Shown here: positions 14,855 to 30,290 of the stretch, piece by piece | How the letters are laid out: the number at the start of each line of letters is the position of its first letter | Numbering within the stretch: the first letter of the stretch is position 1 | Source: Candidatus Uhrbacteria bacterium RIFCSPLOWO2_01_FULL_47_25 | GTDB lineage: Bacteria > Patescibacteriota > Patescibacteriia > GWA2-46-9 | NCBI GenBank assembly: GCA_001791325.1 | Contig: MGEK01000039.1 | Location: 1,175 to 65,174 of the forward strand | Reading direction: 5' to 3' | DNA length: 64,000 bases | The notes under the pieces: generated by a model | Database searches by the model: none | The model's input: the letters and a program-made list of their open reading frames with translations, nothing else | What the model was told of the DNA's origin: nothing | Position numbers and translations under genes: made by a program

Positions 14855-14857
14855 AAC

Positions 14858-15220: not shown

Positions 15221-15407
15221 AAGTTATAGCCCCATCATAGCACAACCTACAATCAAGATGAATCCCGCGCCATGCTGGCCGGCAGGTAACGGATATACGC
15301 AACAATATCAACCTTCTATGTTCTCAACTCCCCACCAAGAATCAAAAAGCGCATTGTTATGCAACCAGTCGCGAATATCTTCCCAATATTGTGAAGCTCC
15401 ACGGCTT

Positions 15408-15512: not shown

Positions 15513-15753
15513 CAATTCAGTAATGCTGCCTTTTTCTCGTGATTTTTCAATAATCTCTAAATCATCTCGAGCATATTTAGTTAGCTTGCGAAAAATTTTT
15601 TTATTACCCTTAATCTTTTCAAAAATTCCTCTAATTTGATTCACCCACTCGGGCAATCGCTCTCCGCTCGGCATTTCCCCTTCTGGCAATTTTCCGACAG
15701 ACATAAATCAATTACCCCGCCCCAAGGGGCAGGGAAAGAAATTTACATGCATA

Positions 15754-16014
15754 TCATGATTCAAGCGCGGCAATCAAACTTTTTGCGGTTTTGTGAGTAG
15801 TATAGTTACCTAAAGCATAATCAAGCCGCGCTTCATTGATGATTTCATCAAACGTTTCGGCTTCATTTACACGTCTGATGTCGTCTGTAGAAATCTCCAA
15901 TATAATCTTCTTTTCACGAGGATACCGAGAAAGATAGCGCAAAGCAGACAATGGTAAGTTTATCGTTGCCTCGTGGGTTCTTTTTGAATTAGCCTTACTT
16001 ATTTTGGTTCTCAT
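15754..16014 (-). CDS. hypothetical protein (terminal cassette-like ORF)
   Basis: 86-aa ORF at the distal end of the repeat-punctuated island; no family recognised. Confidence 0.35.
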   Translation of the reverse strand: MRTKISKANSKRTHEATINLPLSALRYLSRYPREKKIILEISTDDIRRVNEAETFDEIINEARLDYALGNYTTHKTAKSLIAALES

Positions 16015-16089
16015 ATCGAGAGTGCTTATAAAAATATCATGGCACGAAAGAAAAATTCAAGCAAATTTGGACGATGGTCTGTAAGAGCC

Positions 16090-16270
16090 AAGTCAGGTAC
16101 ACGCTGTTATGCGAAGTAGGTTACGGGATAAATTAATTAAAAATCGCCTAACGGCTCGCGGCTATGCGGAGTCCTGAAGGAATTGTATCACAATTCCTGA
16201 GGGATTACGTATACACACGCTGTTATATGATGTAATGAAAAATTCTTAATTCGCCGATAGGCGAATTATT
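16090..16270. repeat. attC-like modular palindromic repeat, copy A (short form)
   Basis: CACGCTGTTATGCGAAGTA ... CGCCTAACGGCTCGCGG-hairpin-CGTATACACACGCTGTTATATGATGTA, followed by the hairpin ATTCGCCGATAGGCGAAT. Confidence 0.6.
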
Positions 16271-17393
16271 TAATCGGGGCAATTTTTTTAAATTTTTTCA
16301 AAATTTCTCTTTCGAATTCGTCAATACCAAAAATCTTCTCAAATTCTTTTATAGTTTCTATGAGTTTCCCGTGCGGAAAAATGCCTTGCAGAAGTGGTTT
16401 ATTTTTAACTCGTGCTATCATTTCATCAGTTGGTTGCCAGTCGATTTTTGCCTTATCAAATAACTTTTTAAATTGATAACATTCTTGCTTCATTACCAAT
16501 AATTTTAACTTCTCAAAATTCATTTTGCGAATTTGTTTATAGATTTCGGTAGCTTTTATTGAAAATTCATCAACAAGGTTGTTTATTTCGTCTATTTTGA
16601 GAAATTCTCCATCGGCCCGTACAGCAAATTTTTTCATACCTGCCACAGGACTTTGTCCTTTAGAAATTGTATGACAGCCGACAAAGGATATTTTCCATAA
16701 AACATTTTCATAAATCGCGTAAATAACAACCTCTTTTACGTTTGCCAACAACTTTTCCGTCCATAATTCTTTCGGTCGGAGATTGGGGAAATGCCGGATT
16801 AATAGTACTTGATTAGATTTTAATGTGTATGGACCATAAACATCCCAACCGAGGTCAGTTACTACATCATTATAAAGCCCATGGACAAGCGAGCCAGCGG
16901 CCGTTATGAGCTGTCCAATTTTGCGAGCGCTTTGAATATCGGCTTTGTTCCATTTTATGTGAGATATGAACGTGCCAATTTCGGAGTTTGTATGACGTGG
17001 ATTCGATTTCAATGCGAAAGGATCGTCTGGACAACTTTCCTTGAGCATACGTGCGAAAAAATTTGCTACTGATTTATAATCCTTTTTATTCTCCGTTGGC
17101 TTAGCGTGGTAGGAAGGAATAAGTTTTATGAGAATTGCCCGCAGGTTAGAGGGTGGCGGGAGTATTCCTTTAATTTCACTAAAATGTTTTGATTCCAAAT
17201 CTAATTTTTTGATTGCATGCGCAATACTTGCTACCCATAAATCATACCAAAGAGGAAAAAAATGATAAAAATCAAGTGGTTGAAATCCCTCTAACACCTG
17301 CCCTTTAAAAACGTTTGAAGCGGATTTTGAAAATTCTTTAATCCAAGACATATACTTTTCCTTTTTGGCCGTCAACGCGGATGCGCATGCCAT
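16266..17393 (-). CDS. hypothetical protein (cassette ORF; 3' gene of a three-gene unit)
   Basis: 375 aa, no recognised family; its probable start (MSWIKEF) overlaps the upstream gene by a few nt. Confidence 0.45.
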   Translation of the reverse strand: MACASALTAKKEKYMSWIKEFSKSASNVFKGQVLEGFQPLDFYHFFPLWYDLWVASIAHAIKKLDLESKHFSEIKGILPPPSNLRAILIKLIPSYHAKPTENKKDYKSVANFFARMLKESCPDDPFALKSNPRHTNSEIGTFISHIKWNKADIQSARKIGQLITAAGSLVHGLYNDVVTDLGWDVYGPYTLKSNQVLLIRHFPNLRPKELWTEKLLANVKEVVIYAIYENVLWKISFVGCHTISKGQSPVAGMKKFAVRADGEFLKIDEINNLVDEFSIKATEIYKQIRKMNFEKLKLLVMKQECYQFKKLFDKAKIDWQPTDEMIARVKNKPLLQGIFPHGKLIETIKEFEKIFGIDEFEREILKKFKKIAPIK

Positions 17394-17667
17394 TTTTTAT
17401 CTTTTGGGTTGCTTCTTTGGTGTTGACAACGCAGGGAATACCCATCTCCCTGCTTAAAATAGCAGGATGTGAAGTGATGCCGCCAATATCCGTGATAATT
17501 GCCGCTGCCCTTACCATTGCGGTCACCATCGTCGGATCGGTTATCGTGGTTACTAAAATATTTCCCTCTTCAAATGAAGAAGGGTCGTCGCCAGAATAAA
17601 ATAATCTGGCGGTGCCTTCTATGTTTCCCGGGCTTGCGCCCATGCCTGTGAGTAATATTTTAGCCAT
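17338..17667 (-). CDS. stand-alone PEP-utilising enzyme mobile (swivelling phosphohistidine) domain protein
   Basis: GGITSHPAILSREMGIPCVV is the phosphohistidine swivel-domain signature of PEP synthase, PPDK and rifampin-phosphotransferase-type enzymes. Only 109 aa. Confidence 0.7.
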   Translation of the reverse strand: MAKILLTGMGASPGNIEGTARLFYSGDDPSSFEEGNILVTTITDPTMVTAMVRAAAIITDIGGITSHPAILSREMGIPCVVNTKEATQKIKNGMRIRVDGQKGKVYVLD

Positions 17668-17669
17668 AG

Positions 17670-18626
17670 TTATTGTAGTGAGTCGACTTTTTTAGGTTTT
17701 ATGTTGTTGGCTTTAATATACTCTTTTGCCAACTCAGTTAATGCGGGGATGTTCAGTTTGTATTCCTGTGTTTCTCCATTTTCACGTCGCAATATAATTG
17801 TAACTTGTTTTTCTCCTTGGTTATCGTTTTGTATCCGCAAATCCCAACTATCAAGTATTTTTAAACTCCCGCCAATTTCTTCCAAATTTTCAAAACCTAC
17901 TACGCTTTCTTTATTTTTTTCTCTTTCTATAGCATATTTCAGAAATGCTTCGGTTGATGTTTTGTGTCCCGAGCTAACCAGATTAATTGATTTACCGCCT
18001 GGCATATAATCTGGCAAATGGACAAGGCGATTAATCTTGAAAGCGACAGAAGCGGCTTGCTCCCGCGGACTCGGCGTTTCTTCATCTGGTCGCTTGTCGC
18101 CAAAAGAAAGATACCACTCTAAAGCTGGCTCTTCTGCATATTCTGCGGCTGCTTCCTGTTCATCGGGCGGTAGTTCATCAAATTTTTTTCCCGAATAATG
18201 CTCGTCGATGTATTGTTGTCTTTTTGGTAACATGATTGCATCGTACTGCTGCATAAATTTTTTGCTTGCGGCTAAGGCAGGCAGAGAAAAAAATGCCTGC
18301 GTAGTTTCTGACCTTTGTAAAATATTGGGGTTAACTTCTGCGGCTTGAAATACAGAAGTTAGTGTTTCTTTGGTTCTGTCTATTGCGGTAGCGTATGCCT
18401 TAGTAATTTTGCGACCAGCTAGTTGACTTTTTCCATAAGTTTCTGCGCGTTGTTTTCCTGTTTCTGAAATGCTTGACGTCGATAGTCCTTGAATTCCTTC
18501 CGCAAAGACTTGCCCAGACGCTTTTTGCGAATGGCGGACAAAAGTAAATCTTATTTCTGTATTATGCCCTCGTTCTTCTTTTAGTTCTTCAGGTTGTTCA
18601 ATTTGTGGTCTTCGTTCGTTAATCAT
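17670..18626 (-). CDS. hypothetical protein, possibly histidine-phosphatase (PGAM-like) superfamily
   Basis: The N-terminal RHSQ motif (FTFVRHSQKA...LSETGKQRAE) and a later SSGHKTSTEA segment resemble the RHG...H catalytic motifs of branch-1 histidine phosphatases; the similarity is weak. Confidence 0.4.
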   Translation of the reverse strand: MINERRPQIEQPEELKEERGHNTEIRFTFVRHSQKASGQVFAEGIQGLSTSSISETGKQRAETYGKSQLAGRKITKAYATAIDRTKETLTSVFQAAEVNPNILQRSETTQAFFSLPALAASKKFMQQYDAIMLPKRQQYIDEHYSGKKFDELPPDEQEAAAEYAEEPALEWYLSFGDKRPDEETPSPREQAASVAFKINRLVHLPDYMPGGKSINLVSSGHKTSTEAFLKYAIEREKNKESVVGFENLEEIGGSLKILDSWDLRIQNDNQGEKQVTIILRRENGETQEYKLNIPALTELAKEYIKANNIKPKKVDSLQ

Positions 18627-18659
18627 ATTGGTTGGTAAAAAATTTAAAAAAATTGCCCC

Positions 18660-19040
18660 GATTAATTTGCCCGATAGGGCAAAAAAAAATTTTCATTATT
18701 TCACATAACGGCTCGCGGCTATGCGGAGTCCTGAAGGAATTGTATCACAATTCCTGAGGGATTACGTATAGCCGCTGTTCGGCGATGTGCGCCGCGCGCA
18801 CGCCTGCCCGCCGAAGTATGGGGTGTTTGAATTCAGCATCTTAGTGAATAAGGAACGAAGGCGGGAGCCGAACAGCGGGAACCGCGAGCCGTTAGGCAAA
18901 ATGCGCGGCGCATTTTGCCTAACGTTCGCGTATATCTGATGTTTTGCGGAGCGTAGCGGAGCAAAATATGGGTGAGTATTTGGCGTTAGCCAAGCGCGAA
19001 CCAGATATACGCTGTTATATGATGTATGCTTTTCTTTTTG
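18660..19040. repeat. attC-like modular palindromic repeat, copy B (long form)
   Basis: TTGCCCGATAGGGCAA hairpin, then ACATAACGGCTCGCGG...GCTGTTCGGCGATGTGCGCCGCGCGCAC...GCCGAACAGCGGGAACCGCGAGCCGTTAGGCAAAATGCGCGGCGCATTTTGCCTAACGTTCGCGTATATCTGATGTTTTGCG...CAAAATATGGGTG...CCAGATATACGCTGTTATATGATGTA. Confidence 0.65.
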
Positions 19041-19145
19041 TCTCGCCTCAACGAGACCACTTTTCTATAATGAACAAATTTTATTTTTGTCTTGGCGTAG
19101 GGGCAGAGGGGCTGGGGGTGAATGCCACGAAGCCAAGACACCTTA

Positions 19146-20294
19146 TTATTCGTTGTCGGTGAATATATCAATGTAGTTCTTATACATATATGACTGCCTG
19201 TACTTCTTGCCCTTATCCTTTGGAATTAAAATACCCATTTTGATAAATCTATCAATAACTGTTTGTGCGCCAGCGCGAGTAAAGCCAGTCCATTTTTGAA
19301 TAACACTAACAGTTACAATGGGCTGCGCATATAATTTTGGTAACACCAAAGCTGCGCTTTCAGAAGCGCGTTTGCCAAGAGTTTGAATTTCGAGCAGGTC
19401 TTTCTCGCGCAAGATAGTGATTTTACCGACAGTATCTATTGCTTCGTTAGCAATTTCAATGACACCCTCAAGAAAGAAATCTATCCAATCCGATATGTTA
19501 CCATTATGGTAACTCAACAACTTTTCGTAATACAATTTTTGGTATTTTTTGAAAAAAGACGACAAAAACAAGACCGGCTTTTCCAAGTAGCCCTCTTTCC
19601 AAAGGTAAAAGGTAATCAACATTCTTCCGGTTCTGCCATTGCCATCCAAAAACGGGTGAATGGTTTCAAATTGAGCATGAATTAGTCCGGCTTTTATTAC
19701 GGTTGGTATTGCGTCGTCGGTATGAATAAACTTTTCCAAATCATTAAGCGCGCGATGCATTTCATCAACTGGCGGCGGAACAAAATTTGCGTTATCTGGG
19801 CGAGTACCGCCAATCCAATTTTGACTTTTACGGAATTCGCCCGGGTCGGAAAAATGTGTTGCGCGTGCTTTCTGCATAAGTTGCTTGTGCAGTTCACGAA
19901 TAAACCGGAGGACCATTGGAAAACCGTCTGTTCTCATTCTTTTTATTCCATAGTTGAGCGCCTTGATGTAGTGAAGAATGTCATCTACATCATCCGGTAT
20001 TTTCGTATCTATTTTTGCTTCCGCCGCGATTGCATCTATCATGGTCGCTCTCGTACCTTCAATTTGGCTGGAGGAAGCTGCGTCTTTTCGTAAATACATC
20101 AAAAGAAAAAAGTCAGCGTCCGGTAGTAATTTGGTAATGCCGTCCAATTTGCCAAGCAGGCGAGTGGCTTCATTGTTCTTTTTAAGGATATTTTGATCAA
20201 AACCAACCCCCTCCTTTGGTGGAAAGGGGTGCGGAATAAAAGCTTTAAATCCAGCAGGTTGCGCTTTGTATACGCCCATCTCAATGTTTTGCAT
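19146..20294 (-). CDS. Fic/DOC family protein (AMPylation-type Fic motif; class II with an N-terminal inhibitory motif)
   Basis: Canonical Fic motif IHPFLDGNGRTGR. An SxxxEG-type inhibitory motif (SSQIEG) lies N-terminal in the same chain. Confidence 0.85.
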   Translation of the reverse strand: MQNIEMGVYKAQPAGFKAFIPHPFPPKEGVGFDQNILKKNNEATRLLGKLDGITKLLPDADFFLLMYLRKDAASSSQIEGTRATMIDAIAAEAKIDTKIPDDVDDILHYIKALNYGIKRMRTDGFPMVLRFIRELHKQLMQKARATHFSDPGEFRKSQNWIGGTRPDNANFVPPPVDEMHRALNDLEKFIHTDDAIPTVIKAGLIHAQFETIHPFLDGNGRTGRMLITFYLWKEGYLEKPVLFLSSFFKKYQKLYYEKLLSYHNGNISDWIDFFLEGVIEIANEAIDTVGKITILREKDLLEIQTLGKRASESAALVLPKLYAQPIVTVSVIQKWTGFTRAGAQTVIDRFIKMGILIPKDKGKKYRQSYMYKNYIDIFTDNE

Positions 20295-20401
20295 AGTTTG
20301 TTTACATCTTTAGTTAATGTATACAAAGTATATCAGTTTGTATATTTTATGTCAAGTAAAGTTTACAAACTGCGAGGTGAATACCCCGAAGCCAAGACAC
20401 C

Positions 20402-21451
20402 TCATTTCGTTCTCTCAATAATTTTGACTATTCCATTATTAGCGTCTAATTCCACCAAATCGTTGTTTTGTAAAATTTTAGTGGCATTTTTTGTGCCAAC
20501 AATACAAGGAATATTTAGCTCTCTGCTGATTATAGCGGCGTGGCAGGCGATTCCGCCTTCGTTTGTTACTATACCCAAAACATTTTTCAAATAAGGCGTG
20601 AATTTTATGGAAGTCATCGGCGCCACCACTATTTTGTTGTCTAAATTATTCAGATCCGATTCTCTCAAGATCAGCCGAACTCGGCCTTTTATTAAACCCT
20701 TGTTGGCGACACTACCTTTAATAAAATCGGTTTGATTTTTTTCTTCTTTAATATTGCTTTTTAAAATTTGCTTGGCTTTTGCACCAGTTAAAATTTTTGT
20801 TTTACCGCCATTAACAGTTAAAAATAAAATAAGTTTTTTTCTTTCTCCTAAAATATTTTCTTTTATCTTTTTGTTATCTTTTAGCAAGTCAATTATTTCG
20901 TCTGGTAAGGCGTAAAATAATAGGTCGCTCTTAATTTTCTTTCTTTTTCCTATTTCTTGAAAAAAAAGTGGTAAAAAATCTTTCTGAATTTTTTCATAGT
21001 CAGCTATTCCTCTCGCTTCTCTTAATTTGTCTTTTATCGCCTGCGACAAATCATTCTCGTTTAATACCATGCCAAAATATTTTGGCAATGTAAAAAGAGG
21101 AAAATAATTTTGATAAATATTAACAAAATCAGTAAAAATTTTCAGCAGTTGTTTGTCTGTAAAATTATCTAATTTTTTACATTCTAAAAATTTTTTCAGC
21201 CTTTCGTTTTGCTTCTTCAGTTTGTCAAGTATTTTTTCAAAAATTTCAAGCTTCTTAGTTTTTAATTCATTCAGAAACTCATCATATTCGCTCTTTAAAC
21301 GCCATGAATGGACAATGCCATTTTCATGCATCATTAAAAAATTTTTCAGATTTTTTCCAATATTTTTTTTGTAATTCTTAAGATAGCCTATCATTATGCA
21401 ATAGGTTGTGAATAAATCGCATTCTCTCTCGGTAAATTTTGTCCATTCCAT
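20402..21451 (-). CDS. hypothetical protein with a C-terminal PEP-utilising enzyme mobile domain
   Basis: C-terminus NEGGIACHAAIISRELNIPCIVGTKNAT is the swivel-domain signature. The N-terminal ~240 aa is Lys/Asn-rich and unassigned. Confidence 0.6.
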   Translation of the reverse strand: MEWTKFTERECDLFTTYCIMIGYLKNYKKNIGKNLKNFLMMHENGIVHSWRLKSEYDEFLNELKTKKLEIFEKILDKLKKQNERLKKFLECKKLDNFTDKQLLKIFTDFVNIYQNYFPLFTLPKYFGMVLNENDLSQAIKDKLREARGIADYEKIQKDFLPLFFQEIGKRKKIKSDLLFYALPDEIIDLLKDNKKIKENILGERKKLILFLTVNGGKTKILTGAKAKQILKSNIKEEKNQTDFIKGSVANKGLIKGRVRLILRESDLNNLDNKIVVAPMTSIKFTPYLKNVLGIVTNEGGIACHAAIISRELNIPCIVGTKNATKILQNNDLVELDANNGIVKIIERTK

Positions 21452-21458
21452 AGGTTTG

Positions 21459-22268
21459 TTATAATTTAATTTTTTCTGTCCCGACTAGCTCTCTTTTTTT
21501 ATCAAAATGAAATTCCTCACAGAAATGTGGTACCTCATCAATTGAAAATTGACCTTGCTGTTTTTCATAGCTCATTTGGCCCAATGGGCCACTATGGCCA
21601 ACGGCAAACAAAATGATAGGCGACTGTCGCTGGTCGGATTGCGGTCTTTCAGACTTTGTAACAACGCTATGTACTAATTCCATAAACTGTTTATATCTTT
21701 CGGCCGCTTTTTTCGGCAGTTTTGTTTTTTCAAATTTAACATTGGGTTCATTCATTGCGTGAAAATATTGTAAAAGCGCTTCCATTTCGTTTATGGCATT
21801 TGGGCCCTTTGTCATTTCTGCGTACGGCTTCCAAGTGTCAGGGTGCGCGTCGGCTAGTAATTTAACTAGTTCTGTACTGTCAATTTCCAACATATCAATT
21901 CGTTTTGCATTTTTCTTGTCTTGAGATTCGCCTTGTGCTTCCAGTTGAGCCAAGCGAGCCGTGGCAAGATGTCTGGTCAGTTGCGTGCGGTCTTTTCCGC
22001 TATCCATCACAACTAAAATACTCTCTTTGGGCAATTGTGCGTAAAGATTGTCAGCTAACCGTAAACTGCGGATAATACCGTCTAATTTTAGTGGTGCTTC
22101 TCCCAATTTAACAACTTCCGGAAAATCGTTTTCCAAAACAGATATAACCAAGTTAAATTCTTTCGCCGTCAATTTTGATTTCAATTCCTCCGGATTCAAT
22201 TTCCACGTTCCTTTGTCGGCATGACGAGTGATTATAGATTCTTGATTTTCAAGAAATTTTTCAGTCAT
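21459..22268 (-). CDS. hypothetical protein (co-oriented immediately upstream of the swivel-domain protein)
   Basis: 269 aa; no confident family. Confidence 0.45.
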   Translation of the reverse strand: MTEKFLENQESIITRHADKGTWKLNPEELKSKLTAKEFNLVISVLENDFPEVVKLGEAPLKLDGIIRSLRLADNLYAQLPKESILVVMDSGKDRTQLTRHLATARLAQLEAQGESQDKKNAKRIDMLEIDSTELVKLLADAHPDTWKPYAEMTKGPNAINEMEALLQYFHAMNEPNVKFEKTKLPKKAAERYKQFMELVHSVVTKSERPQSDQRQSPIILFAVGHSGPLGQMSYEKQQGQFSIDEVPHFCEEFHFDKKRELVGTEKIKL

Positions 22269-22384
22269 ATTTTTGAGTTAGTAATATTTATAAAATCGTT
22301 TTCTGAGCGACGAGAGGAGCGAAGAAAACACCATATACCCCCCTCTTAAAAAATAAAAATAAAATTTATTCATTATAGAAAAGT

Positions 22385-22580
22385 GTTAGGCGTTAGCCGT
22401 AAAAAGAAAAGCATATTTCGTATAACGTTTAAGTGTATGCGAAGTTGAAAAACCCCGCTGCCTTGATTTAATTGTATCAAAAAAAGCGGGGTTTTTCAAC
22501 TTGGGTGAAAGACATGGCACAATTCTTTAGTTACATTAAAAAGTGTGCCAGTCCTAAACCGCATACACTTTGTTAGGCGA
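22385..22580. repeat. attC-like repeat, diverged copy H
   Basis: GTGTTAGGCGTTAGCC ... CGTATAACGTT-GTGTATGCGAAGT-[16-bp perfect stem AGTTGAAAAACCCCGC/GCGGGGTTTTTCAACT]-TGGGTGAAAG ... CCGCATACACTTTGTTAGGCGATGTA. Confidence 0.5.
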
Positions 22581-22626
22581 TGTAAAAACAAGTTCTTTCC
22601 TTAATTCGGGAATAAGGAAAATTATA

Positions 22627-22884
22627 TTAAGCGCCCTTCTCAGCAAGTCTTTTTATTACTGCTTTGTCAATAACATCCCTCACTACGGAGTGTATTTTTT
22701 TCCCGCCATCTTCAGTGAACAATGCTTCGACTTTGGGGAACCATGGCTTGTCTTCGCACATTTTTCTTGCATCACCAGACTCCCATCCCAAAAAATTATT
22801 AAATGCCGCTAGCTCACCATCAGTTAATTGATTAAGAGCCATGTTCGCAGCAGCCTCCAACTGCGGTGGTTGTTCTCTGTTCAT
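22627..22884 (-). CDS. hypothetical protein (cassette ORF)
   Basis: 85-aa ORF bounded by attC-like repeats on both sides. Confidence 0.4.
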   Translation of the reverse strand: MNREQPPQLEAAANMALNQLTDGELAAFNNFLGWESGDARKMCEDKPWFPKVEALFTEDGGKKIHSVVRDVIDKAVIKRLAEKGA

Positions 22885-22974
22885 AGGTTTGTATGATTAA
22901 AATTTATAAGTGTCTTTTGTATAAATAGCTTAATATAATTTTCGTTAAAATTCAATAGAACTTGTTTTTATTTC

Positions 22975-23330
22975 ACCTAAGGTCCGCGGCATATCCCTGC
23001 AGTGACGCGAGCCCCGCCCTACGGGGCGAGTGGCATTGCGGATATGCCGCTGTTATGCGATGTGCGCCGCGCGCACGCCTGCCCGCCGAAGTATGGGGTG
23101 TTTGAATTCAGCATCTTAGTGAATAAGGAACGAAGGCGGGAGCAGAACAGCGGGAACCGCGGACCTTATGCAAAATGCACGGCGCATTTTGCATAACGTT
23201 TCGGCATATCTGATGTTTGCCGTAGCGTAGCGAAGGCAAATATGGGTGAATAAATTTTGCATTCCTTAGCATTATTATAGCGCAAAATTTATGAACCAGA
23301 TATGCCGTGTTATGCGATGCTGCAAAAATA
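22975..23330. repeat. attC-like modular palindromic repeat, copy C (long form)
   Basis: AAGGTCCGCGG...GCTGTTATGCGATGTGCGCCGCGCGCAC...CAGAACAGCGGGAACCGCGGACCTTATGCAAAATGCACGGCGCATTTTGCATAACGTTTCGGCATATCTGATGTTTGCCG...CAAATATGGGTG...CCAGATATGCCGTGTTATGCGATGC. The outer stem is the covariant GGTCCGCGG/CCGCGGACC. Confidence 0.65.
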
Positions 23331-23336
23331 TTTTAT

Positions 23337-24110
23337 TTATTTGTAAAGATAACCTACTCCTAGAATCATTGATTGTCCAAATTTTTTCTTATCTTTATTA
23401 TCGACAAACGTTAGCAACGGTACCCCCTTCTTTTTACACTCCTCATGTTGATAAATGTTTTGACCCAAAATTATTTTTTTCCACGCTTTATTTACTTCCT
23501 CGTATGCGATAATGTCGTGAAATGCGGCCAGCCCATTTTTATCCAAAAAATAATTATAGTTTTTCCAATCATTTAATACCGACTTACATGTATGATCTCC
23601 ATCAATAAATAAAAAATCCACCTTCCTATTGCCCAAATACTCTTTTAGGTCTTCTCGTGCTTTTTTAGAGGTAGACTTCCTTCTAATATGCAAATAGTTA
23701 TTTTTTAGATAAAAATGCCTAAGTTTATTAATCGTGTCTTCATATGTATAGAACTGTTTTTCATATTTAGATCCCGTTATATAAGGATCAATAGTGATGA
23801 AGGTTGTTCCCGAATTACCAAGAGCTGCAGATAATAGGTAAATAAAGCCACCACGTGCCGATCCTATTTCTAAAATAATTTTGGGTCTTCTTCTTCTTAT
23901 TTTTTCTAAGGTGTGAACAATCTCAAGCGGGGTTTGCCCCACGTCTGGACACTCAAAATTTGGACAATCAATTCTTAGTTTTTCTGTAATGTATTTTATT
24001 CTTTTGTTCATAATTAAATATTTTTGCAGTTTCACATAACGTCCGGGTATCATGCGCTCGTACTCGTATGGCGCATATACCCTGTTAGGCGATGTAAATA
24101 TTTTGCTCAA
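23337..24110 (-). CDS. class I SAM-dependent methyltransferase (TylF/MycF-like Methyltransf_24-type family)
   Basis: Motif I ILEIGSARGG and LFIDGDHT. The track ORF begins with TTG and overlaps attC-like copy D, so the true start is probably an internal ATG (MIPGRY or MNKRIK). Confidence 0.6.
   Translation of the reverse strand: MSKIFTSPNRVYAPYEYERMIPGRYVKLQKYLIMNKRIKYITEKLRIDCPNFECPDVGQTPLEIVHTLEKIRRRRPKIILEIGSARGGFIYLLSAALGNSGTTFITIDPYITGSKYEKQFYTYEDTINKLRHFYLKNNYLHIRRKSTSKKAREDLKEYLGNRKVDFLFIDGDHTCKSVLNDWKNYNYFLDKNGLAAFHDIIAYEEVNKAWKKIILGQNIYQHEECKKKGVPLLTFVDNKDKKKFGQSMILGVGYLYK
24030..24100. repeat. attC-like repeat, copy D (minimal ~70-bp form)
   Basis: CACATAACG-TCCGGGTATCATGCGC-loop-GCGCATATACCC-TGTTAGGCGATGTA. 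Confidence 0.55.
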
Positions 24111-24177
24111 TGAGATAAAAAATGAGAGTTGGGCGAGAGGGTTGGGTTTCCTCTCGCGCCCGTGAGCTGATTGTACA

Positions 24178-24411
24178 CTACGCAGATTGATCGAGGCGAC
24201 GCAAGCTCTTCACGGTAACGCCATGGGAGACCGTTTCGCCATCCCAGACGATCGGTACCTCCCAAGGATCGTAGAGACATTTCGGGCCTCCGAATGCTGC
24301 TTGCACCGTCCCGATTTTCTTCGCGTCGACGTGCTGAACTCGAAGCCCCGCAGGAAAATCATCGTCGATTTGTGCCATGAGTGACTCCTTACTGTCTGTG
24401 GTGGTGCCCAA
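24178..24411 (-). CDS. hypothetical protein (visibly GC-richer cassette ORF)
   Basis: 77-aa ORF whose composition differs from the AT-rich neighbours; flanked by attC-like repeats. Confidence 0.35.
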   Translation of the reverse strand: MGTTTDSKESLMAQIDDDFPAGLRVQHVDAKKIGTVQAAFGGPKCLYDPWEVPIVWDGETVSHGVTVKSLRRLDQSA

Positions 24412-24439
24412 CTCTCATTTTTTATCAATATCAATGGAC

Positions 24440-24745
24440 AAAATATTTATTTCGCCTAACGGCTCGCGGCTATGCGGAGTCCTGAAGGAATTGTATCACA
24501 ATTCCTGAAGGATTACGTATAGCCGCTGTTAGGCGATGTGCGCCGCGCGCACAAGCATAACAGCGGGAACCGCGAGCCGTTATGCAAAATGCGCGGCGCA
24601 TTTTGCCTAACGTTCGCGCATATCTGATGTTTGCGGCTGGTATAATATAACGCCGATAGGCGTTTTACCAGCCGCAAATATGGGTGGAGGCTTGGCGTCA
24701 GCCAAGCCGTAGCCAGATATGCGCTGTTATATGATGTAACAATAC
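24440..24745. repeat. attC-like modular palindromic repeat, copy E (long form)
   Basis: CGCCTAACGGCTCGCGG-hairpin-GCTGTTAGGCGATGTGCGCCGCGCGCAC-AAGCATAACAGCGGGAACCGCGAGCCGTTATGCAAAATGCGCGGCGCATTTTGCCTAACGTTCGCGCATATCTGATGTTTGCGGCTGG...CCAGCCGCAAATATGGGTG...CCAGATATGCGCTGTTATATGATGTA. Confidence 0.65.
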
Positions 24746-24793
24746 ATTCTTAACTCCGACCGAAGAGAGGAGTTATGGAAATCAGGGTAATTT

Positions 24794-25288
24794 TTAATCA
24801 AAAAATTCGCAACGTTTATTGTACAGTAGCTCATTAACCTCAACCATAATTGCTTTTAACTCCGCAAAAAGTGCAAGGATGGGATGACCGTCGGAAACCT
24901 CGTAATGAGGGTAACCACTGGCAGGTGTTATTAGTGTGAGGCTTTTTGCGGCTTCCTGTATTTGTTTGTGAAGAGCATCGGCCCTGTCAGCTAGTTGATT
25001 GTATCTTTCTCCTTTTTCTTTTTGCTCTGCCTCCAAAGCGTCTATATCAACCTTTGGAATGAGGCGAGCTATTTTAACTTGCTCCACCTCCGCATATGTG
25101 TGCTTGCCTCTAACTTCTTTTAATTCTTCTGGTGTTGTGTTTTGATGACCACGCCTTCTGCTAGGTTCAAGCGCATAAATTAGATCACCTGCTGTCCCGA
25201 TCCAGTCATTCCAAAGGTGGCCTGAAAATTGTTTCCGTTTGAATGGTTCGTAATATTCTGGTGGCGGTTTAAGGTCTTCTGTAGACAT
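24794..25288 (-). CDS. hypothetical protein (cassette ORF)
   Basis: 164 aa, no family recognised; bounded by repeats. Confidence 0.45.
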   Translation of the reverse strand: MSTEDLKPPPEYYEPFKRKQFSGHLWNDWIGTAGDLIYALEPSRRRGHQNTTPEELKEVRGKHTYAEVEQVKIARLIPKVDIDALEAEQKEKGERYNQLADRADALHKQIQEAAKSLTLITPASGYPHYEVSDGHPILALFAELKAIMVEVNELLYNKRCEFFD

Positions 25289-25354
25289 ATTTTTTGATTA
25301 CAATAAAATTGCCCTGATTTCCAGCCGCCGCGTCAGCGGCGGAAAGAATGTATT

Positions 25355-25460
25355 GTTATTTCATATAACGTTCGCATATATCTGATGTTGCGACTGAAAG
25401 GAGCGATATGGACAAAACGAAGCGGAGCCAGATATACGCTTGTTGTGCGATGTTAGCGAG
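25355..25460. repeat. attC-like repeat, copy F (partial: 3' modules only)
   Basis: CATATAACGTTCGCATATATCTGATGTTGCG...GAGCCAGATATACGCTTGTTGTGCGATGTTAG. Confidence 0.5.
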
Positions 25461-25463
25461 CAT

Positions 25464-25745
25464 TCATCGATAGACGCACGGATAGCACCGACTCGTTTCC
25501 GTATTGCAGGAGTGCGACACTTTTTCTCCCGGAATGAATTTTGCCCCCGTAAAAGAGGCACACCAGCAGTCATCATCTGATTGACACACCGTGTTTTCAT
25601 TAGTTTCTGAAATTTCCACATTCACTGCCTCGGGCTGAGGCTGTACGAATTGAAATCTAAGAAAAAGTGCCGCTCCGATTGCTACCACAATCAGAATCAC
25701 TATTCCTAACGCCGTTTTAATTATCATAGTGTTTATATAATGCAA
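25464..25745 (-). CDS. hypothetical small Cys-rich membrane-anchored/secreted protein (cassette ORF)
   Basis: N-terminal hydrophobic anchor followed by a Cys-rich C-terminal domain (CQSDDDCWC...CNTETSRCYPC). Confidence 0.4.
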   Translation of the reverse strand: MHYINTMIIKTALGIVILIVVAIGAALFLRFQFVQPQPEAVNVEISETNENTVCQSDDDCWCASFTGAKFIPGEKVSHSCNTETSRCYPCVYR

Positions 25746-25784
25746 AACCTTTTTAAATCAGCAGAACAAGCTCGCCAATTTCGT

Positions 25785-26075
25785 ACAAGGTCCGCGGCAT
25801 ATCCTTGCAGTGACGCGAGAGCGCGTACGCTCGAGCGGCATTGCGGATATGCCGCTGTTATGCGATGTGCGCCGCGCGCACGAGCAGAACAGCGGGAACC
25901 GCGGACCTTATGCAAAATGCGCGGCGCATTTTGCATAACGTATCGGGATAAGCGAAGTTTTTACGAAGTGAAACGAAGTAAAAATTTGGGTGAAGGGCAA
26001 ATGCAACTCATTAATGTAAGTAATAAATCGCATTTGCCCTGAACCGCTTATCCCGTGTTAGGCGATGAATTTTTG
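25785..26075. repeat. attC-like modular palindromic repeat, copy G
   Basis: CAAGGTCCGCGG...GCTGTTATGCGATGTGCGCCGCGCGCACGAGCAGAACAGCGGGAACCGCGGACCTTATGCAAAATGCGCGGCGCATTTTGCATAACGTATCGGGATAAGCG...CGCTTATCCCGTGTTAGGCGATGAA. Confidence 0.6.
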
Positions 26076-26081
26076 AAACTA

Positions 26082-26390
26082 TTAGACGGGTAATTTTTTA
26101 ATATCGTTGTGCGGATGTAGATTGATACGAATTGCATCAACTATATCAATTTTACTCTCGTCGATACCACCGACATCTGGAAGGCTGCTTAATTCATGTT
26201 CTATATCTGTTTGTGTCAATTCGTCCTTTTCTAATTTTTTTAAAAGACGCTTTTTTGCTTGTTCCGCCACGCCCAAAGTAATGGATAGTCTATGCTCTAA
26301 TTTTGGAGGCGGAAGTTCTCTCAATATTTTGTCTAAAATTGGCGTGGCGGAAGCAGCCTGCTCCCTTCCTTCGTGTCCCATATTTTCCAT
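26082..26390 (-). CDS. hypothetical protein (integrase-proximal cassette ORF)
   Basis: 102 aa; first minus-strand ORF next to the divergently transcribed recombinase. Confidence 0.4.
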   Translation of the reverse strand: MENMGHEGREQAASATPILDKILRELPPPKLEHRLSITLGVAEQAKKRLLKKLEKDELTQTDIEHELSSLPDVGGIDESKIDIVDAIRINLHPHNDIKKLPV

Positions 26391-26538
26391 ATGATTTATG
26401 TTAGAAATTAGTTAATAGTTTCAAAAATTTTTCGCCTAACTCGTTTATATGCGACGTGTTTTCGTATATGATACACAATATTGCTTAATGAACGAATATC
26501 GTTTATAATGACAATATGTCATTATAATATCACTAAAA
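26391..26538. promoter_or_regulatory. divergent intergenic region between first cassette and recombinase (candidate attI / cassette promoter region)
   Basis: AT-rich. Contains GCCTAACTCG and CGTGTT boxes resembling the repeat cores, plus -10-like TATAAT/TATGAT hexamers on both strands. Confidence 0.3.
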
Positions 26539-27354
26539 ATGATAGATGCATATTTAAAAAGAACGGAAGACGAATTGAGATTGCGCAATTACAGCCCCAA
26601 GACTATAAAAAGCTACCTAGCCTGCCTCGCTGGTTACCTGCGCGCGAAGAAGAGCAATTTAGAATCCATTGACACTGATTTTATCAAGCGGTTTTTGTTG
26701 AGTAAAAAGGACGCGGGAAAATCCCCACGAACGATCAATCAGAGCTTGCAAGCAATTAATTTCTTCTGTCGCAATGTTTTAAAAAGTCATTGCGATATAG
26801 ATATTAAATTCGCCAAAACCCCTAGCAAGTTGCCGATAGTATTATCGCGCGATGAGATAAAGTTGATCATTGATTCCATTAGCAACGAGAAACATTGTTT
26901 AATGATCGCACTGGCTTATGCTGGTGGATTGCGGGTAAGCGAGATCATCAATCTAAGAATTAAAGATTTGAATATAAACGAGCTGACGATCCACATTAAA
27001 GGCGCCAAGGGGAATCGCGACCGTCTTACTATATTATCTGATAAGTATAAAAATAGGCTTGAAAAAATCATTATCGGCGGGAACCCCAATGATTATGTTT
27101 TCGCGAGCGAACGCGGCGGTAAACTAACAGAGCGCACGGCCCAAAAGATTTTTGAAAATGCGCGGCGAAAAGCGAATATAACCAAAGACGCGACGTTTCA
27201 CTCCTTGCGGCACAGTTTTGCCACCCATTTATTGGAGAACGGCGTGGATGTGCGCTATGTGCAGGAATTATTGGGGCATCAAAATATCAGAACGACCCAG
27301 CTTTACACGCAAGTCACGAATCCACAGCTTAAAAATATCAAGAGTCCGCTATAA
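26539..27354 (+). CDS. tyrosine site-specific recombinase (Xer-like; no IntI-specific insertion)
   Basis: Catalytic residues are present: R in LAYAGGLRVSE, K in KGAKGNRDR, HxxR in HSLRHSFATHLL, H in LLGH, and the Y nucleophile in TTQLYTQV. The spacing between the catalytic K and the HxxR box is ~64 aa, so the ~35-aa IntI-specific insertion is absent. Confidence 0.85.
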   Translation: MIDAYLKRTEDELRLRNYSPKTIKSYLACLAGYLRAKKSNLESIDTDFIKRFLLSKKDAGKSPRTINQSLQAINFFCRNVLKSHCDIDIKFAKTPSKLPIVLSRDEIKLIIDSISNEKHCLMIALAYAGGLRVSEIINLRIKDLNINELTIHIKGAKGNRDRLTILSDKYKNRLEKIIIGGNPNDYVFASERGGKLTERTAQKIFENARRKANITKDATFHSLRHSFATHLLENGVDVRYVQELLGHQNIRTTQLYTQVTNPQLKNIKSPL

Positions 27355-27458: not shown

Positions 27459-29201
27459 ATGTTTACACAGCGACAACTTGAACACATTTTAATTGGTTCT
27501 AAGACCTTCTCTCCTGAAGATTTTAAGAAGCACGTAGCGGCGGCGGAAGCCAAAAAACAAGAGATGGAAGACTATTTGACTTCCGAACACATCCTCTCGG
27601 AGGATAATTTATATGAAACAGCGGCCAGTCTTTTTCAGTTGCCATTTGTTAAAATTAAAAATCAACCGATCAGAAAAGACGTTTTATTCCTGATCCCAGA
27701 GCCGCTCGCTCAACATTACCAAATAGCAGCCATTGACACAGAAGGTGATAATATTTTAAAAATCATAACCACTGACCCAGAAAATTTACAAGCCTTTGAA
27801 TTTCTCAAAAAAAAGACTGGCCGCGACCTTTCCATATCCATTACCACGCCGAGCGCCTTCAAAGAAATAATGAAGCAATACCACAAGAGCCTGCAGGCAG
27901 AATTTCAGGCATTCACTAACATTGACAAGGCCAAAAGTGAAGGAAAGGCCGGTGGAGAAAAAAATCTTCAGGAATTGGCTGAAGATCTCCCGATCATACG
28001 CATCGTTGATACAATGATGGAATACGCAATTTTTGAAGGAGCGTCAGATATACATATTGAGCCGGAAGAACAGCAAATTGACATACGCTACCGCCTTGAT
28101 GGAATACTAAAAAGCGTAATGACGCTTCCCAAGGCGGTACAATCTGGCGTTATAGCCAGAATTAAGGTTTTATCAAATCTAAAGCTGGATGAACATCGTT
28201 TGCCCCAAGATGGACGCTTTAAAATACAAACGCGCGATTACAACATTGCTTTTAGGGTTTCTATAATCCCCGCTTTTGATGGTGAAAAGATAGTGCTGCG
28301 TTTGCTCAATGAAAGCGCACAAGTGCGTTCACTTGAACAAATTAGCATGCAGTCTAATCAATTCGCGATTCTCAAAAAAAATATTCACAAACCGCACGGC
28401 ATGATTCTGGTCACCGGTCCCACTGGTTCGGGAAAAACAACTACTCTCTATACGATCCTGAATGTTCTCAACGTTCCTGAAGTCAATATTTCAACCATTG
28501 AAGACCCCATTGAATACCGCATGCCGCACGTCAATCAAAGCCAAGTTAATCCCAAAATAGGCTACACTTTTTCTATCGGCCTAAGAGCGCTCCTGCGTCA
28601 AGATCCTAATATTATCATGGTTGGTGAAATACGCGATACGGAAACCGCCGAAATAGCGGTGAACGCCGCCATGACCGGACACCTCTTATTGTCCACCCTG
28701 CACACCAATGACGCCGTGACGGCCATTCCACGACTTTTCGATATGGGCATTCCTCCGTTCCTGGTGGCCTCCACAACCAATATGATTATGGCCCAACGGC
28801 TAGTTCGCAAAATCTGCCCCTATTGCATTACCAGCTATAATCTTGGCAAGGCGGCGCTTGAAGAATTAACCCGCCAATTTGATCTCAAAACTATCTTGGG
28901 CATGCTTATTCAACAAGGCAGTGTCACAAAAAACATAAAATCATTTGAGACTCTTCTATTTTACAGGGGCAAGGGCTGCAAACAATGCAACAATGACGGC
29001 TATCGTGGCCGAGCCGGCATCTATGAAGTGTTGGATATCTCTAAGGAATTAAACGATGCCATTGTCAAAAAAGCCACTCGCGAAGACTTAATGACCATTG
29101 CCCGACAACAAGGCATGCTCACAATGGTTGAAGACGGATTCCTGAAGGCCAAGGCTGGCATCACAACAATTGAGGAAGTGCTTCGCGTTACGCAGGAATA
29201 G
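27459..29201 (+). CDS. pilB: type IV pilus assembly / type II secretion ATPase PilB/GspE
   Basis: Walker A GPTGSGKTTTLY, Asp/His boxes, and the C-terminal tetracysteine motif (CPYC...CKQC). Confidence 0.9.
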   Translation: MFTQRQLEHILIGSKTFSPEDFKKHVAAAEAKKQEMEDYLTSEHILSEDNLYETAASLFQLPFVKIKNQPIRKDVLFLIPEPLAQHYQIAAIDTEGDNILKIITTDPENLQAFEFLKKKTGRDLSISITTPSAFKEIMKQYHKSLQAEFQAFTNIDKAKSEGKAGGEKNLQELAEDLPIIRIVDTMMEYAIFEGASDIHIEPEEQQIDIRYRLDGILKSVMTLPKAVQSGVIARIKVLSNLKLDEHRLPQDGRFKIQTRDYNIAFRVSIIPAFDGEKIVLRLLNESAQVRSLEQISMQSNQFAILKKNIHKPHGMILVTGPTGSGKTTTLYTILNVLNVPEVNISTIEDPIEYRMPHVNQSQVNPKIGYTFSIGLRALLRQDPNIIMVGEIRDTETAEIAVNAAMTGHLLLSTLHTNDAVTAIPRLFDMGIPPFLVASTTNMIMAQRLVRKICPYCITSYNLGKAALEELTRQFDLKTILGMLIQQGSVTKNIKSFETLLFYRGKGCKQCNNDGYRGRAGIYEVLDISKELNDAIVKKATREDLMTIARQQGMLTMVEDGFLKAKAGITTIEEVLRVTQE

Positions 29202-29207
29202 TTCTCT

Positions 29208-30290
29208 ATGCCCATTTTAACCATGCCGTCTATTAATTTTCGCATTTTAAAAAGACGAGTTAAGACGACACAAAAAATATTCTTGATGCAGCAAATGCGG
29301 ATTATGGCCAGGGCTGGCGTACCCCTGACCACCACCATCCGAACCCTGCAAGCCCAAACTGGCTCTCGCCGTCTCAAAACAATTCTCACTAATGTCGCTG
29401 ATAAGATAGAAAAGGGGCAAACTCTGTCGCAAGCTCTATTGCCATATATCTCTGATTTTGGTGAATTGATGATCAATATGATCGCCGCCGGCGAGGCCAG
29501 TGGTCGTCTGGAGGAAGTATTTGGACAAATTTATTTACAAATGAAAAAAGATCATGAAATCATCTCGCGAGTACGCGGAGCTCTTATGTATCCAGCCATT
29601 GTAGTATTAGCCATGATCGGCATCGGTATAGGCATGATTGTTTTTGTGATTCCTAAATTAACGGATATTTTTAAAGAATCTAATGTTGCCCTACCCTTGC
29701 CGACAGTCATTCTAATATCCGTGAGTGATTTTATTGTGAACAATGGCTTGCTGGTAGGCATTGGCACAGTCGCTATAATCAGTGCGTTCATCTGGACCAT
29801 TCATCGTCCAAAAGGAAAATACGTTTGGCATTGGTTTTTGCTAAGGTTACCCATTGTGGGTTCAATTATACAAGAAATTAATTTGGCTCGCTTTGCCCGA
29901 ACAACTAGCTCTTTTTTAAAAACTGACATTCCTATAGTCAAAACTTTGACAACTACCGCTCATGTTTTGAGCAATGTTCATTACCAAAATGCCTTGTTGG
30001 CCGCCTCTGAACGCATCGTTAAGGGAGTCACTTTAAAAGAGGCGCTGGAACCATACCCAAATTTATTTAATCCAACTATAATGCAGATGATCGCAGTGGG
30101 TGAACAATCCGGATCATTGGATGATATTCTTGCTGAAGCGGCGGAATTTTATGAAACAGAAGTGTCGCAAACTATGACTACCCTCCCCTCCCTCCTTGAA
30201 CCGGTCTTAATGGTGATATTGGGCATTGGAGTAGGCGGCATGGCCGTAGCCATTATGATGCCCCTTTATACTCTGACTCAAGCTTTTTAA
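29208..30290 (+). CDS. pilC: type IV pilus inner-membrane platform protein PilC/GspF
   Basis: 360 aa with two T2SS-F repeats and three TM segments, immediately downstream of pilB. Confidence 0.85.
   Translation: MPILTMPSINFRILKRRVKTTQKIFLMQQMRIMARAGVPLTTTIRTLQAQTGSRRLKTILTNVADKIEKGQTLSQALLPYISDFGELMINMIAAGEASGRLEEVFGQIYLQMKKDHEIISRVRGALMYPAIVVLAMIGIGIGMIVFVIPKLTDIFKESNVALPLPTVILISVSDFIVNNGLLVGIGTVAIISAFIWTIHRPKGKYVWHWFLLRLPIVGSIIQEINLARFARTTSSFLKTDIPIVKTLTTTAHVLSNVHYQNALLAASERIVKGVTLKEALEPYPNLFNPTIMQMIAVGEQSGSLDDILAEAAEFYETEVSQTMTTLPSLLEPVLMVILGIGVGGMAVAIMMPLYTLTQAF

Follow-up and report, generated by a model that had tools for sequence, protein, structure and literature searches.

Positions ~16000 to 26500 of a 64,000-nt stretch of the genome of Candidatus Uhrbacteria bacterium RIFCSPLOWO2_01_FULL_47_25 (contig MGEK01000039.1, positions 1,175 to 65,174; the whole stretch is referred to as the window) probably constitute the cassette array of a platform for gene capture that resembles an integron and is carried on the chromosome of a bacterium of the candidate phyla radiation (CPR; Patescibacteria). 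At least 13 folded repeats, all in one orientation, occupy positions 16013 to 26067 between minus-strand accessory genes. The repeat array lies directly upstream of, and is divergent from, a gene for a 271–amino acid (aa) tyrosine recombinase (26539–27354, plus strand). We consider it quite probable that the repeats are single-stranded DNA (ssDNA) recombination sites of this adjacent recombinase, working in an integron-like capture system. The anatomy of the sites, their association with the recombinase, the covariation of their stems, the asymmetry between strands, and the replacement of cassettes at a TAAC boundary were established computationally. The array is flanked by housekeeping genes (mraY, Mur ligase genes, and secA on the left; a CTP synthase gene is also among these flanks) and is therefore chromosomal; beyond the recombinase gene, the right flank carries pilB, pilC, and pilM.

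Folded sites upstream of the recombinase gene

A covariance model (R1) was built from 14 sites of this kind. In the window, it produced 12 matches, all on the plus strand and all between 16013 and 26067, and none in the rest of the 64 kb. Across related loci, 112 matches were found in 60 sources (the window and CPR or metagenome loci), with one orientation per locus. Read along the plus strand, a site starts with ATTTC-RYN-TAAC, 3 to 4 nt, the 5′ arm of the L stem (e.g., GCGTATATCTG), AAG or ATG, and hairpin 1; it ends with T(T/A)TGGGTGA, hairpin 2, GAAC, the 3′ arm of the L stem, and (T)GTTAKRY-GATG. Pairing of AAC with GTT is seen in 98% of 107 sites. The spacer is asymmetric (e.g., GTTC versus T). 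Many sites have a bulged C (GGCATCATCTG/CAGATATGCC), and several window sites have perfect L stems. The TGA and GAA motifs at the junction are read as tandem G·A pairs that lengthen the second hairpin. The variable hairpin arms, 9 to 115 nt and 12 to 326 nt long, share no conserved sequence; even so, they are much more structured than their shuffles, with median z-scores of −3.2 and −2.3.

In the 112-site alignment, 96.8% of the cells in the site stems are paired, compared to 76.4% after shuffling and 28 to 50% with slid partners. Changes on both sides were seen at 14 of the 19 site pairs, including 10 of the 11 pairs of the L stem. The covariation score was 0.493 versus 0.121 for shuffled alignments and was equaled in none of 500 shuffles, a significance that is overstated since the alignment was fitted to the model structure and the sequences are related. 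Because of the effect size and the slid-partner controls, chance is an unlikely cause of this covariation. The stems thus appear to be kept by compensatory change while the sequence drifts, hence the covariation that a first-pass annotation of the window had pointed out.

The same arrangement recurs elsewhere. In all nine long CPR loci (the window; L001 from Pacebacteria, L052 from Moranbacteria, L056 from Wolfebacteria; and L059 and L178 to L181), the sites are co-oriented and located ~0.2 to 8.5 kb upstream of the recombinase gene, on its strand. No further R1 matches were present in the 12 to 21 kb available per long locus (64 kb for the window), the exception being one weak opposite-strand match that overlaps a plus-strand match. 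Each long locus has 2 to 10 small divergent accessory genes directly upstream of the recombinase gene, with R1 sites between them. An adjacent, divergent recombinase gene with a co-oriented array, as is usual in an integron, is present in the window and in eight further long loci. The cargo of the other arrays includes NUDIX, methyltransferase, KilA-N, Bro-N, and acetyltransferase genes as well as a HepT/MNT toxin-antitoxin pair, which forms a cassette at 8179–8800 of L178. Many short contigs stop just upstream of the recombinase gene, as assemblies are expected to break in repeats.

A stretch of ~110 nt that precedes the recombinase gene is conserved in 12 loci. It includes, in this order, ATTTC-NNN-TAAC, 4 to 5 nt, TTATATACGAAG, a short central region, TTCGTATAT, and a second inverted repeat over a TATAAT box. 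In the window, the putative attI-like site (26430–26471) comprises an R arm, TTTCGCCTAA|C, followed by 5 nt and the palindrome TTATATGCGACG-TGT-TTTCGTATATGA. Its arm ATATACGAAG equals the 5′ L-stem arm plus AAG of many attC-type sites. The central bases of the palindrome (26457–26459 in the window; L004 to L009) occur in both orientations among loci (CGAAGTGTTTTCG versus CGAAAACACTTCA), as would be expected for a core site with an invertible or asymmetric center. The second inverted repeat (26472–26508; TACACAATATTG..N..CGAATAT(C/T)G(T)..TATAAT) lies over a −10–like box ~35 nt upstream of the recombinase start, is conserved in each of the 12 loci, and has the look of an operator for the recombinase promoter.

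Turnover at this site was examined between near-identical strains. An identical recombinase is encoded by two contig sets, L004/L005 and L007/L008. When L004 and L008 were compared, 2996 of 3000 positions were identical downstream of the recombinase start and 105 of 106 just upstream, with identity dropping to 28% left of |TAAC. Such a break is the signature that site-specific replacement of a cassette would leave at the crossover box that is predicted here. In the window, the corresponding predicted cassette boundary is the TAAC at 26437–26440; it is exactly to the left of this tetramer in their own sequences that the near-identical strains part company. The insertion point expected of an attI site beside an integrase gene (G|TT, or AA|C on the bottom strand) thus coincides with TAAC, at a resolution that stops short of the exact phosphodiester bond. 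As to a Pc promoter for the first cassettes, a consensus scan revealed no enrichment; a weak minus-strand match is located at 26522–26495.

In the mechanism that we propose, the 271-aa recombinase would recombine the double-stranded attI-like site beside its own gene with folded single-stranded attC-like sites, the folding strand being the plus strand of the window, opposite to the cassette open reading frames (ORFs). Each site combines an R box that is short, (T)AAC/GTT(A), with an asymmetric spacer and an L stem of ~11 bp, which is built around ATAT and is similar to the attI arm. The top of the site usually forms a three-way junction with two variable hairpins, the second closed by the conserved GTGA...GAAC. 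By analogy with integrons, crossover would occur at AA|C on the folded strand and be followed by replicative resolution. Catalysis by this recombinase, the single-strand pathway, and the role of the modules described below are what we infer from the comparisons reported here.

Composite modules without open reading frames

The first-pass annotation had singled out the long repeats, B (18706–19024), C (22978–23319), E (24457–24736), and G (25786–26067), all on the plus strand, as units under selection for their fold. The covariation was borne out; each long repeat, however, is a composite of three sites and two small palindromes rather than one big site. The composites contain no ORF and have the order attC-1, GATG, the palindrome P4, an optional insert, a “mini” element, the palindrome P5, and the next site. 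The mini (e.g., GCCGAAC-AGCGG-GAA-CCGCGAGCC-GTTAGGC) is the reverse complement of the R box, spacer, and first 3 bp of attC-1, everything else having collapsed to GAA. In single-stranded form, the mini can pair with the two arms of attC-1: with the 5′ arm over 11 to 14 bp (P1) and with the 3′ arm over ~12 bp (P3). In module B (18706–18922), which is 96% identical to module E across 106 nt, P1 joins 18706–18718 to 18882–18894, the P2 hairpin spans 18719–18771, and P3 joins 18772–18783 to 18867–18878; P4 is located at 18787–18801, the insert at 18802–18866, GAA at 18879–18881, and P5 at 18895–18919. The other modules are C (22978–23196; attC-1 at 22977–23062, insert at 23077–23141), E (24457–24610; attC-1 at 24456–24538, R1 33.8 bits), and G (25786–25938; attC-1 at 25785–25867, R1 19.9 bits), all on the plus strand.

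The swaps of paired bases that had been noticed between copies could be read directly from the sequence. The outer stem is formed by TAACGGCTCGCGG (18706–18718 and 24457–24469) and CCGCGAGCCGTTA (18882–18894 in B) in copies B and E and by AAGGTCCGCGG and CCGCGGACCTT in copies C and G, exactly as annotated. The inner stem is perfect in B (CTGTTCGGC/GCCGAACAG) and has one A·G mismatch in C and G (CTGTTATGC/GCAGAACAG) and one G·A mismatch in E; inside the window, this second example is therefore only partly compensatory. One of the two central palindromes described as invariant, GTGCGCCGCGCGCAC, is indeed the same in all four copies; the other, GCAAAATGCGCGGCGCATTTTGC, is the same in three, with a G-to-A change at 23178 in copy C, and is better called nearly invariant. 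The variable insert is real: it is 65 nt long, 97 to 100% identical between its two occurrences (18802–18866 and 23077–23141), and is situated in the loop that the inner stem closes. Its layout, CCCGCC-GAAG-TATGGGGTG-hairpin-GAAC-GAAGGCGGG, looks like the interior of a three-way-junction site, and it lacks R boxes. The possibility that it is a cassette put in at AA|C of the mini was rejected, as the insertion point is located between CACG and AGCAGAA. A small hairpin with a CGATAGG loop, which had been listed as a third covarying element, was dropped. Its motif CCGATAGG, a GATA loop on a GCC/GGC stem, lies at 16254, 18671, and 24653, not quite where it had been placed. The three matches compare to 1.29 expected, 15 of 100 shuffles also yield three, and the 10-mer is present in only 1 of 176 related loci; the element is thus at chance level and essentially missing from related loci.

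More copies were obtained from other sources. A scan of metagenomes with the P5 pattern yielded dozens of true modules, mostly from groundwater. In genome contigs, a scan with the P4 palindrome GCGATGTGCGCCGCGCGCAC gave 42 matches, nearly all of them due to chance in GC-rich genomes; it confirmed a related array in the Berkelbacteria genome L010, and L026 also had P5 and an R1 site. An identical module segment of ~40 nt (CTGTTATGCGATGTGCGCCGCGCGCACGAGCAGAAC) was found at 1–60 of L010 and at 25857–25895 of the window, which would fit either horizontal spread of an ORF-less module between CPR lineages or close relatedness.

We aligned 21 distinct modules from other loci on anchors that are independent of complementarity (ATKKC-N4-AA, GTTNNGC-GAWG, the AAC of the mini, and the start of P5). 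P1 was paired in 91.5% of cells across 14 distinct arm sequences, and 10 of its 13 pairs had changed on both sides; in P3, 80.7% of cells were paired and two-sided changes affected 11 pairs. Together, P1 and P3 had a covariation score of 0.477 compared to 0.144 for shuffles (none of 500 equal) and at most 0.11 with slid partners. The apparent compensation is thus also seen in copies from other loci. The third base of AAN in attC-1 is T in nine modules, C in seven, A in two, and G in two, and is always matched by the mini and not by the GTT of attC-1 itself.

In all four window modules, the minimum-free-energy fold is a three-way junction, P1-P2-P3(P4), followed by a P5 hairpin. The probability of pairing of attC-1’s own R box, 0.05 to 0.99 when attC-1 is folded alone, falls to at most 0.012 within the module, while most P1 pairs have a probability of ~1.0. 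Pairing of the mini with both attC-1 arms would thus produce a three-way junction that removes the R-box pairing of attC-1. Were the module excised as a circle, P1 and P5 would join into a hairpin of ~21 bp and another hairpin, paralogous to it, would arise from P3 and P4, leaving the molecule almost fully paired.

Copies of the same module in different contexts (B/E, C/G, and L073a/L073b) diverge at AA|N of attC-1 and at TAA|C of the next site, and the module thus behaves like a distinct cassette that contains no ORF. The AAC of the mini is kept in 20 of 21 modules, as a true crossover of the module might be, yet the divergence between copies falls at the two outer positions.

The reverse-complementary relationship between the mini and attC-1 can also be explained by history. 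An inverted insertion beside the element’s own copy, followed by deletion of the tip, would leave complementary arms, which concerted evolution could then keep alike. Consistent with this scenario, the mini is exactly the reverse complement of the base of attC-1, with a center of GAA or a few nucleotides; the collapse point varies between module families; P4 is similar to the core of P5 within each module; and the mini of L123 is unrelated to its attC-1 5′ arm, suggesting that units can be shuffled. P1 is missing from some modules (L123, L079, and three in L010), a point against the main reading. However, module families with the same collapse point (...CGGGAACCG...) differ in P1 by two-sided changes (CCGCGAGCC, CCGCGGACC, CCGCGCGCC, CCGCCGCGC, and CCGCCGCCC), which argues that the pairing has been maintained rather than created anew by recurrent duplication. 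The level of P1 pairing, held over its 14 distinct sequences, argues in the same direction, as does the P3 core, which tolerates G·T far more often than A·C (10 versus 2), as expected if one strand must fold. We therefore regard a purely historical origin as doubtful and find it reasonably probable that folding of the module is the reason why P1 and P3 have been maintained. As to what the fold does, two suggestions that do not exclude each other can be offered, both tentatively and with low confidence: the fold may mask attC-1 and so keep the junction recombinationally quiet, or it may stabilize a small, selfish cassette in its folded ssDNA form.

Recombinase affiliation and the nature of the folded strand

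The recombinase (Pfam Phage_integrase, 1.4e-44) belongs to a family with at least 7620 homologs at E ≤ 1e-20, 266 to 280 aa long, and is 70 to 76% identical in Pace-, Moran-, Wolfe-, and Magasanikbacteria. Against NCBIfam, it scored 216.4 bits with XerA_Arch (cut-off, 220) and 189 and 183 bits with XerD and XerC, both far under their cut-offs. The integron integrase model TIGR02249 gave 207 bits (cut-off, 265), with the match split in two stretches, and the best matches in PDB include XerA (142 bits). When the recombinase was aligned with Vibrio cholerae IntIA (VchIntIA, 2a3v), residues 6–182 corresponded to 6–186 and residues 195–271 to 241–317. Between these blocks, 12 aa of the query (183–194) stand for 54 residues of IntIA (187–240).

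Several observations weigh against the integron-like reading. The IntI-specific insertion is missing, so the recombinase lacks the additional domain around patch III by which integron integrases are recognized; integron recombination is reported to require this insertion, which is treated as defining for IntI (PMC9668308, citing Messier & Roy 2001). The enzyme is about as close to XerA as to IntI, and the very high conservation of its family fits a housekeeping Xer. Simple tyrosine recombinases of candidate phyla, labeled “Cand,” have been classed as Xer-related, with no link to cassettes mentioned (PMC8138268). Among the sites, canonical extrahelical bases are present inconsistently; in P1, the ratio of G·T to A·C pairs (5 versus 13) is uninformative and was dropped as a strand test, as the A·C cells are located at the end of the helix. 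Last, the support for the proposed function is wholly comparative.

These points can be assembled into a different account, in which the enzyme is the housekeeping Xer of CPR bacteria, the adjacent palindrome is dif, and the cassettes resemble integrative mobile elements exploiting Xer (IMEX) stacked at dif. Both XerA matches, the missing insertion, the strong conservation of the family across CPR, and its Xer-related label agree with this account, as do the classical arms of the palindrome around a short center found in both orientations among loci. Precedents exist: xerS adjoins difSL, and the CTX phage enters dif as a folded single strand. On the other hand, single-gene units, stereotyped co-oriented folded sites, and a TAAC boundary 5 nt outside the palindrome match the anatomy of an integron better than that of phage-like IMEX elements. 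The GC skew of the window, a weak indicator in a single window, is negative or near zero to either side of 26.5 kb and does not change sign near there, its cumulative curve being essentially monotonic; this speaks against a replication terminus. We consider a housekeeping Xer/dif system unlikely; the question it raises is mostly what the enzyme should be called and where it came from, and it is compatible with the mechanism proposed above.

In folding calculations that used DNA energy parameters, 98 of the 107 distinct sites were more stable on the site strand than on the complementary one, the mean difference being 2.4 kcal/mol, and the plus strand is 6 to 7.5 kcal/mol more stable in each of the four window modules. 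G·T pairs outnumber A·C pairs in the site stems (41 versus 19). Many of the hairpins are tipped by GCGAAGC or GCGTAGC. In all, GCGNAGC was counted 38 times on the site strand but not once on the complement, and CGNAG 148 versus 13 times. The heptamer d(GCGNAGC) is a classic DNA-specific, ultra-stable mini-hairpin (Hirao and colleagues), a structural motif familiar from phage origins and promoters; to our knowledge, it has not been recognized as a building block of recombination sites. Here, the same heptamers, d(GCGAAGC) among them, tip the hairpins of the sites on one strand only. The favored strand is antisense to every cassette ORF, and this folding of the strand opposite the genes is the “bottom strand” arrangement of integrons (PMC5371416). 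The first-pass annotation had left open whether the folded substrate is attC-like bottom-strand DNA or a structured RNA. Given the stability of the site strand, the asymmetry of GCGNAGC, the antisense position of the strand, and the lack of Rfam matches, we conclude from these in silico folds that the substrate would be single-stranded DNA of the strand opposite the cassette genes.

The idea that the repeats are instead genes or cis-elements of a structured RNA (a small RNA, leader, terminator, or ribozyme) is thus very improbable. It could draw on the strong covariation and the three-way junction with conserved junction bases, on the excess of G·T over A·C on one strand, and on the TGA...GAA around a hairpin, which recalls the hammerhead core. 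A hammerhead ribozyme was rejected, since core residues C3, U4, and A6 are missing and Rfam is silent. For the repeats searched, no family of Rfam 15 reached its gathering score, and what matched at E ≤ 5 did so at chance level; a consensus scan found no enrichment of promoter-like or terminator-like sites over shuffles. Moreover, the favored strand is antisense to all cassette ORFs and has DNA-type tips, and the repeats are located exactly where cassette boundaries differ between strains. It is just as far-fetched that the repeats are selfish extragenic palindromes with no tie to the recombinase, akin to repetitive extragenic palindromes (REPs), bacterial interspersed mosaic elements (BIMEs), or miniature inverted-repeat transposable elements (MITEs): they are short, intergenic, hairpin-forming, and multicopy, and a Y1 (IS200-like) transposase gene lies near the recombinase gene in the Pacebacteria locus L001 (6547–7218), but they are limited to one 10-kb array of the 64-kb window in a single orientation, are found only upstream of the recombinase gene in all nine long loci, and have an L stem that matches the arm of the site beside that gene.

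Gene content of the array and relation to known systems

The sites can be ordered along the plus strand from the recombinase gene outward. The three-way-junction site G2 (25935–26067, R1 85.1 bits) is followed beyond module G by site H, with a degenerate junction (25365–25452, 46.8 bits); by E2, a three-way-junction site (24607–24736, 75 bits), and module E; and by site F, a simple hairpin (24036–24094, 34.6 bits). Further three-way-junction sites are C2 (23193–23319, 83.1 bits), D (22422–22582, 59 bits), and B2 (18919–19024, 93.3 bits). At the distal end lie the decayed site A (16148–16232, 16.8 bits, E = 0.08), which is 71% identical to the 5′ part of module B, and a weak, most distal site (16013–16116, 22.8 bits, E = 0.003). 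A, D, F, and H are the short repeats of the array.

According to the ORF list, the cassette ORFs between the sites, within 16266–26390, are all on the minus strand. Pfam matches were obtained for a methyltransferase (23337–24110), two PEP-utilizer domain ORFs (20402–21451 and 17338–17667), a histidine phosphatase (His_Phos, 17670–18626), and a Fic ORF (19146–20294) whose product matches the PADLOC model for SoFic, an anti-phage defense protein (PDLC03963, 3.8e-109). The remaining cassette ORFs are 26082–26390, 25464–25745, 24794–25288, 24178–24411, 22627–22884, 21459–22268, and 16266–17393; among the window ORFs searched, several cassette ORFs had no Pfam match. A strong promoter-like site (TTGACA-17-TATACT with an upstream TG) is present at 20355–20327, just upstream of the Fic cassette. 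Some cassettes start with a conserved element of ~110 nt, found at 22290–22420 (plus strand) and, inverted, at 19033–19110 of the window, at 2330–2480 of L125, and in L086 and L026/L087. It consists of ACACC(A/T)TATACCC..CCTCT, an A/T-rich run, TTCATTATAGAAAAGTG, a short hairpin, and AAAAAGAAAAGCATATTTC, and on the minus strand it carries CTATAAT upstream of ORF 21459–22268; it may be a cassette-borne promoter or leader common to several metagenomes. A 26-nt repeat, GGTGAAT(G/A)CC(A/C)CGAAGCCAAGACACC, occurs at 19117–19143 and 20377–20403, just 3′ of two minus-strand stop codons in the same multigene cassette.

Outside the array, a GC-rich, hairpin-like 43-mer is repeated at 5285–5327 and 15446–15488, and an unrelated palindrome, TATCATACTATATAGTATGATA, at 42281–42320 and 63944–63983. 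The type IV pilus genes pilB, pilC, and pilM directly follow the recombinase gene at 27459–31351 (plus strand). CPR pilus genes have been linked to DNA uptake, which would provide single-stranded DNA; this neighborhood is not kept, other loci having different genes downstream. The plus-strand GC skew is negative on both sides of the array (1–16000 and 28000–64000) and approximately zero inside. If the skew reports the direction of replication here, the folding plus strand would be the leading-strand template, an orientation of the folding strand that has been reported for large sedentary integrons (PMC5371416).

The closest counterparts are the sedentary chromosomal integrons, such as the V. 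cholerae superintegron with its V. cholerae repeat (VCR) attC sites. In both, a divergent tyrosine recombinase gene has an att site next to it, and the cassettes, single genes that mostly lack a promoter, form a co-oriented array and each end in an imperfect hairpin site. Shared, too, are the AAC/GTT R boxes, the spacer, the L box, a variable and sometimes branched terminal structure, folding of the strand opposite the ORFs, defense and toxin-antitoxin cargo, and homogeneity of sites within a lineage. The differences lie in the recombinase, which is equally near XerA and IntI and has 12 aa in place of the 54-residue insertion; in the sites, most of which have a three-way junction, conserved GTGA/GAAC, GCGNAGC mini-hairpins, and shorter R boxes; in the attI-like site, a near-perfect palindrome beside the crossover box; and in the CPR host. 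In the literature searched, the coverage of which was incomplete, no description of integrons or attC sites in CPR lineages was found. Archaeal integrons (Ghaly et al. 2022, PMC9668308) likewise reach beyond the classical bacterial phyla, and it is ssDNA folding, not sequence, that defines their sites; archaeal IntIs, however, are reported to keep the IntI-specific additional domain and canonical attC folding, while the enzyme studied here is devoid of the domain.

Single-recombinase Xer systems and the elements that exploit them (XerS/difSL, XerH/difH, and XerA/dif) also combine a ~270-aa enzyme without the IntI insertion and a gene located beside a palindromic site, and the CTX phage provides a folded single-stranded substrate to an Xer-type enzyme. 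In contrast to them, the window has an ordered array of many small cassettes with a folded site each, a crossover box outside the palindrome, and no sign of a replication terminus in its GC skew. The pdif modules of Acinetobacter plasmids, which are shuffled between replicons, are likewise small gene modules bounded by Xer-type sites; they have 28-bp duplex sites in alternating orientation on plasmids, whereas the sites described here are folded, 60 to 200 nt long, in one orientation, and chromosomal.

The system would thus work like a sedentary chromosomal integron yet is not filed as a canonical one, because its recombinase lacks the defining IntI domain. A bolder proposal, to which we give slightly less than an even chance, is that the highly conserved, ~270-aa “Cand” Xer-like recombinase of CPR bacteria runs genuine integron-type capture on folded ssDNA sites without the IntI domain, either as an ancestral Xer-based proto-integron or as an independent invention. 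The arrays would then carry ORF-less, self-complementary cassettes that fold into a three-way junction and so hide or rebuild their own crossover box, acting as an inbuilt recombination switch or as a selfish MITE-like cassette.

Although their basis is comparative only, these findings are of high interest to specialists in integrons and in CPR. Integron finders require an IntI domain and a canonical attC model, so a working Xer-like equivalent would be invisible to such surveys. The self-complementary modules would represent a novel class of cassette that is structured and protein-free, and the recombinase and its sites a compact pair for ssDNA recombination. The system would also offer a testable model for the origin of integrons from Xer/dif. 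It appears to be widespread in CPR, which make up a large share of bacterial diversity and have tiny genomes and a dependence on DNA uptake; if the proposal is correct, it would explain much of the turnover of accessory genes in these bacteria, including defense and toxin-antitoxin genes.

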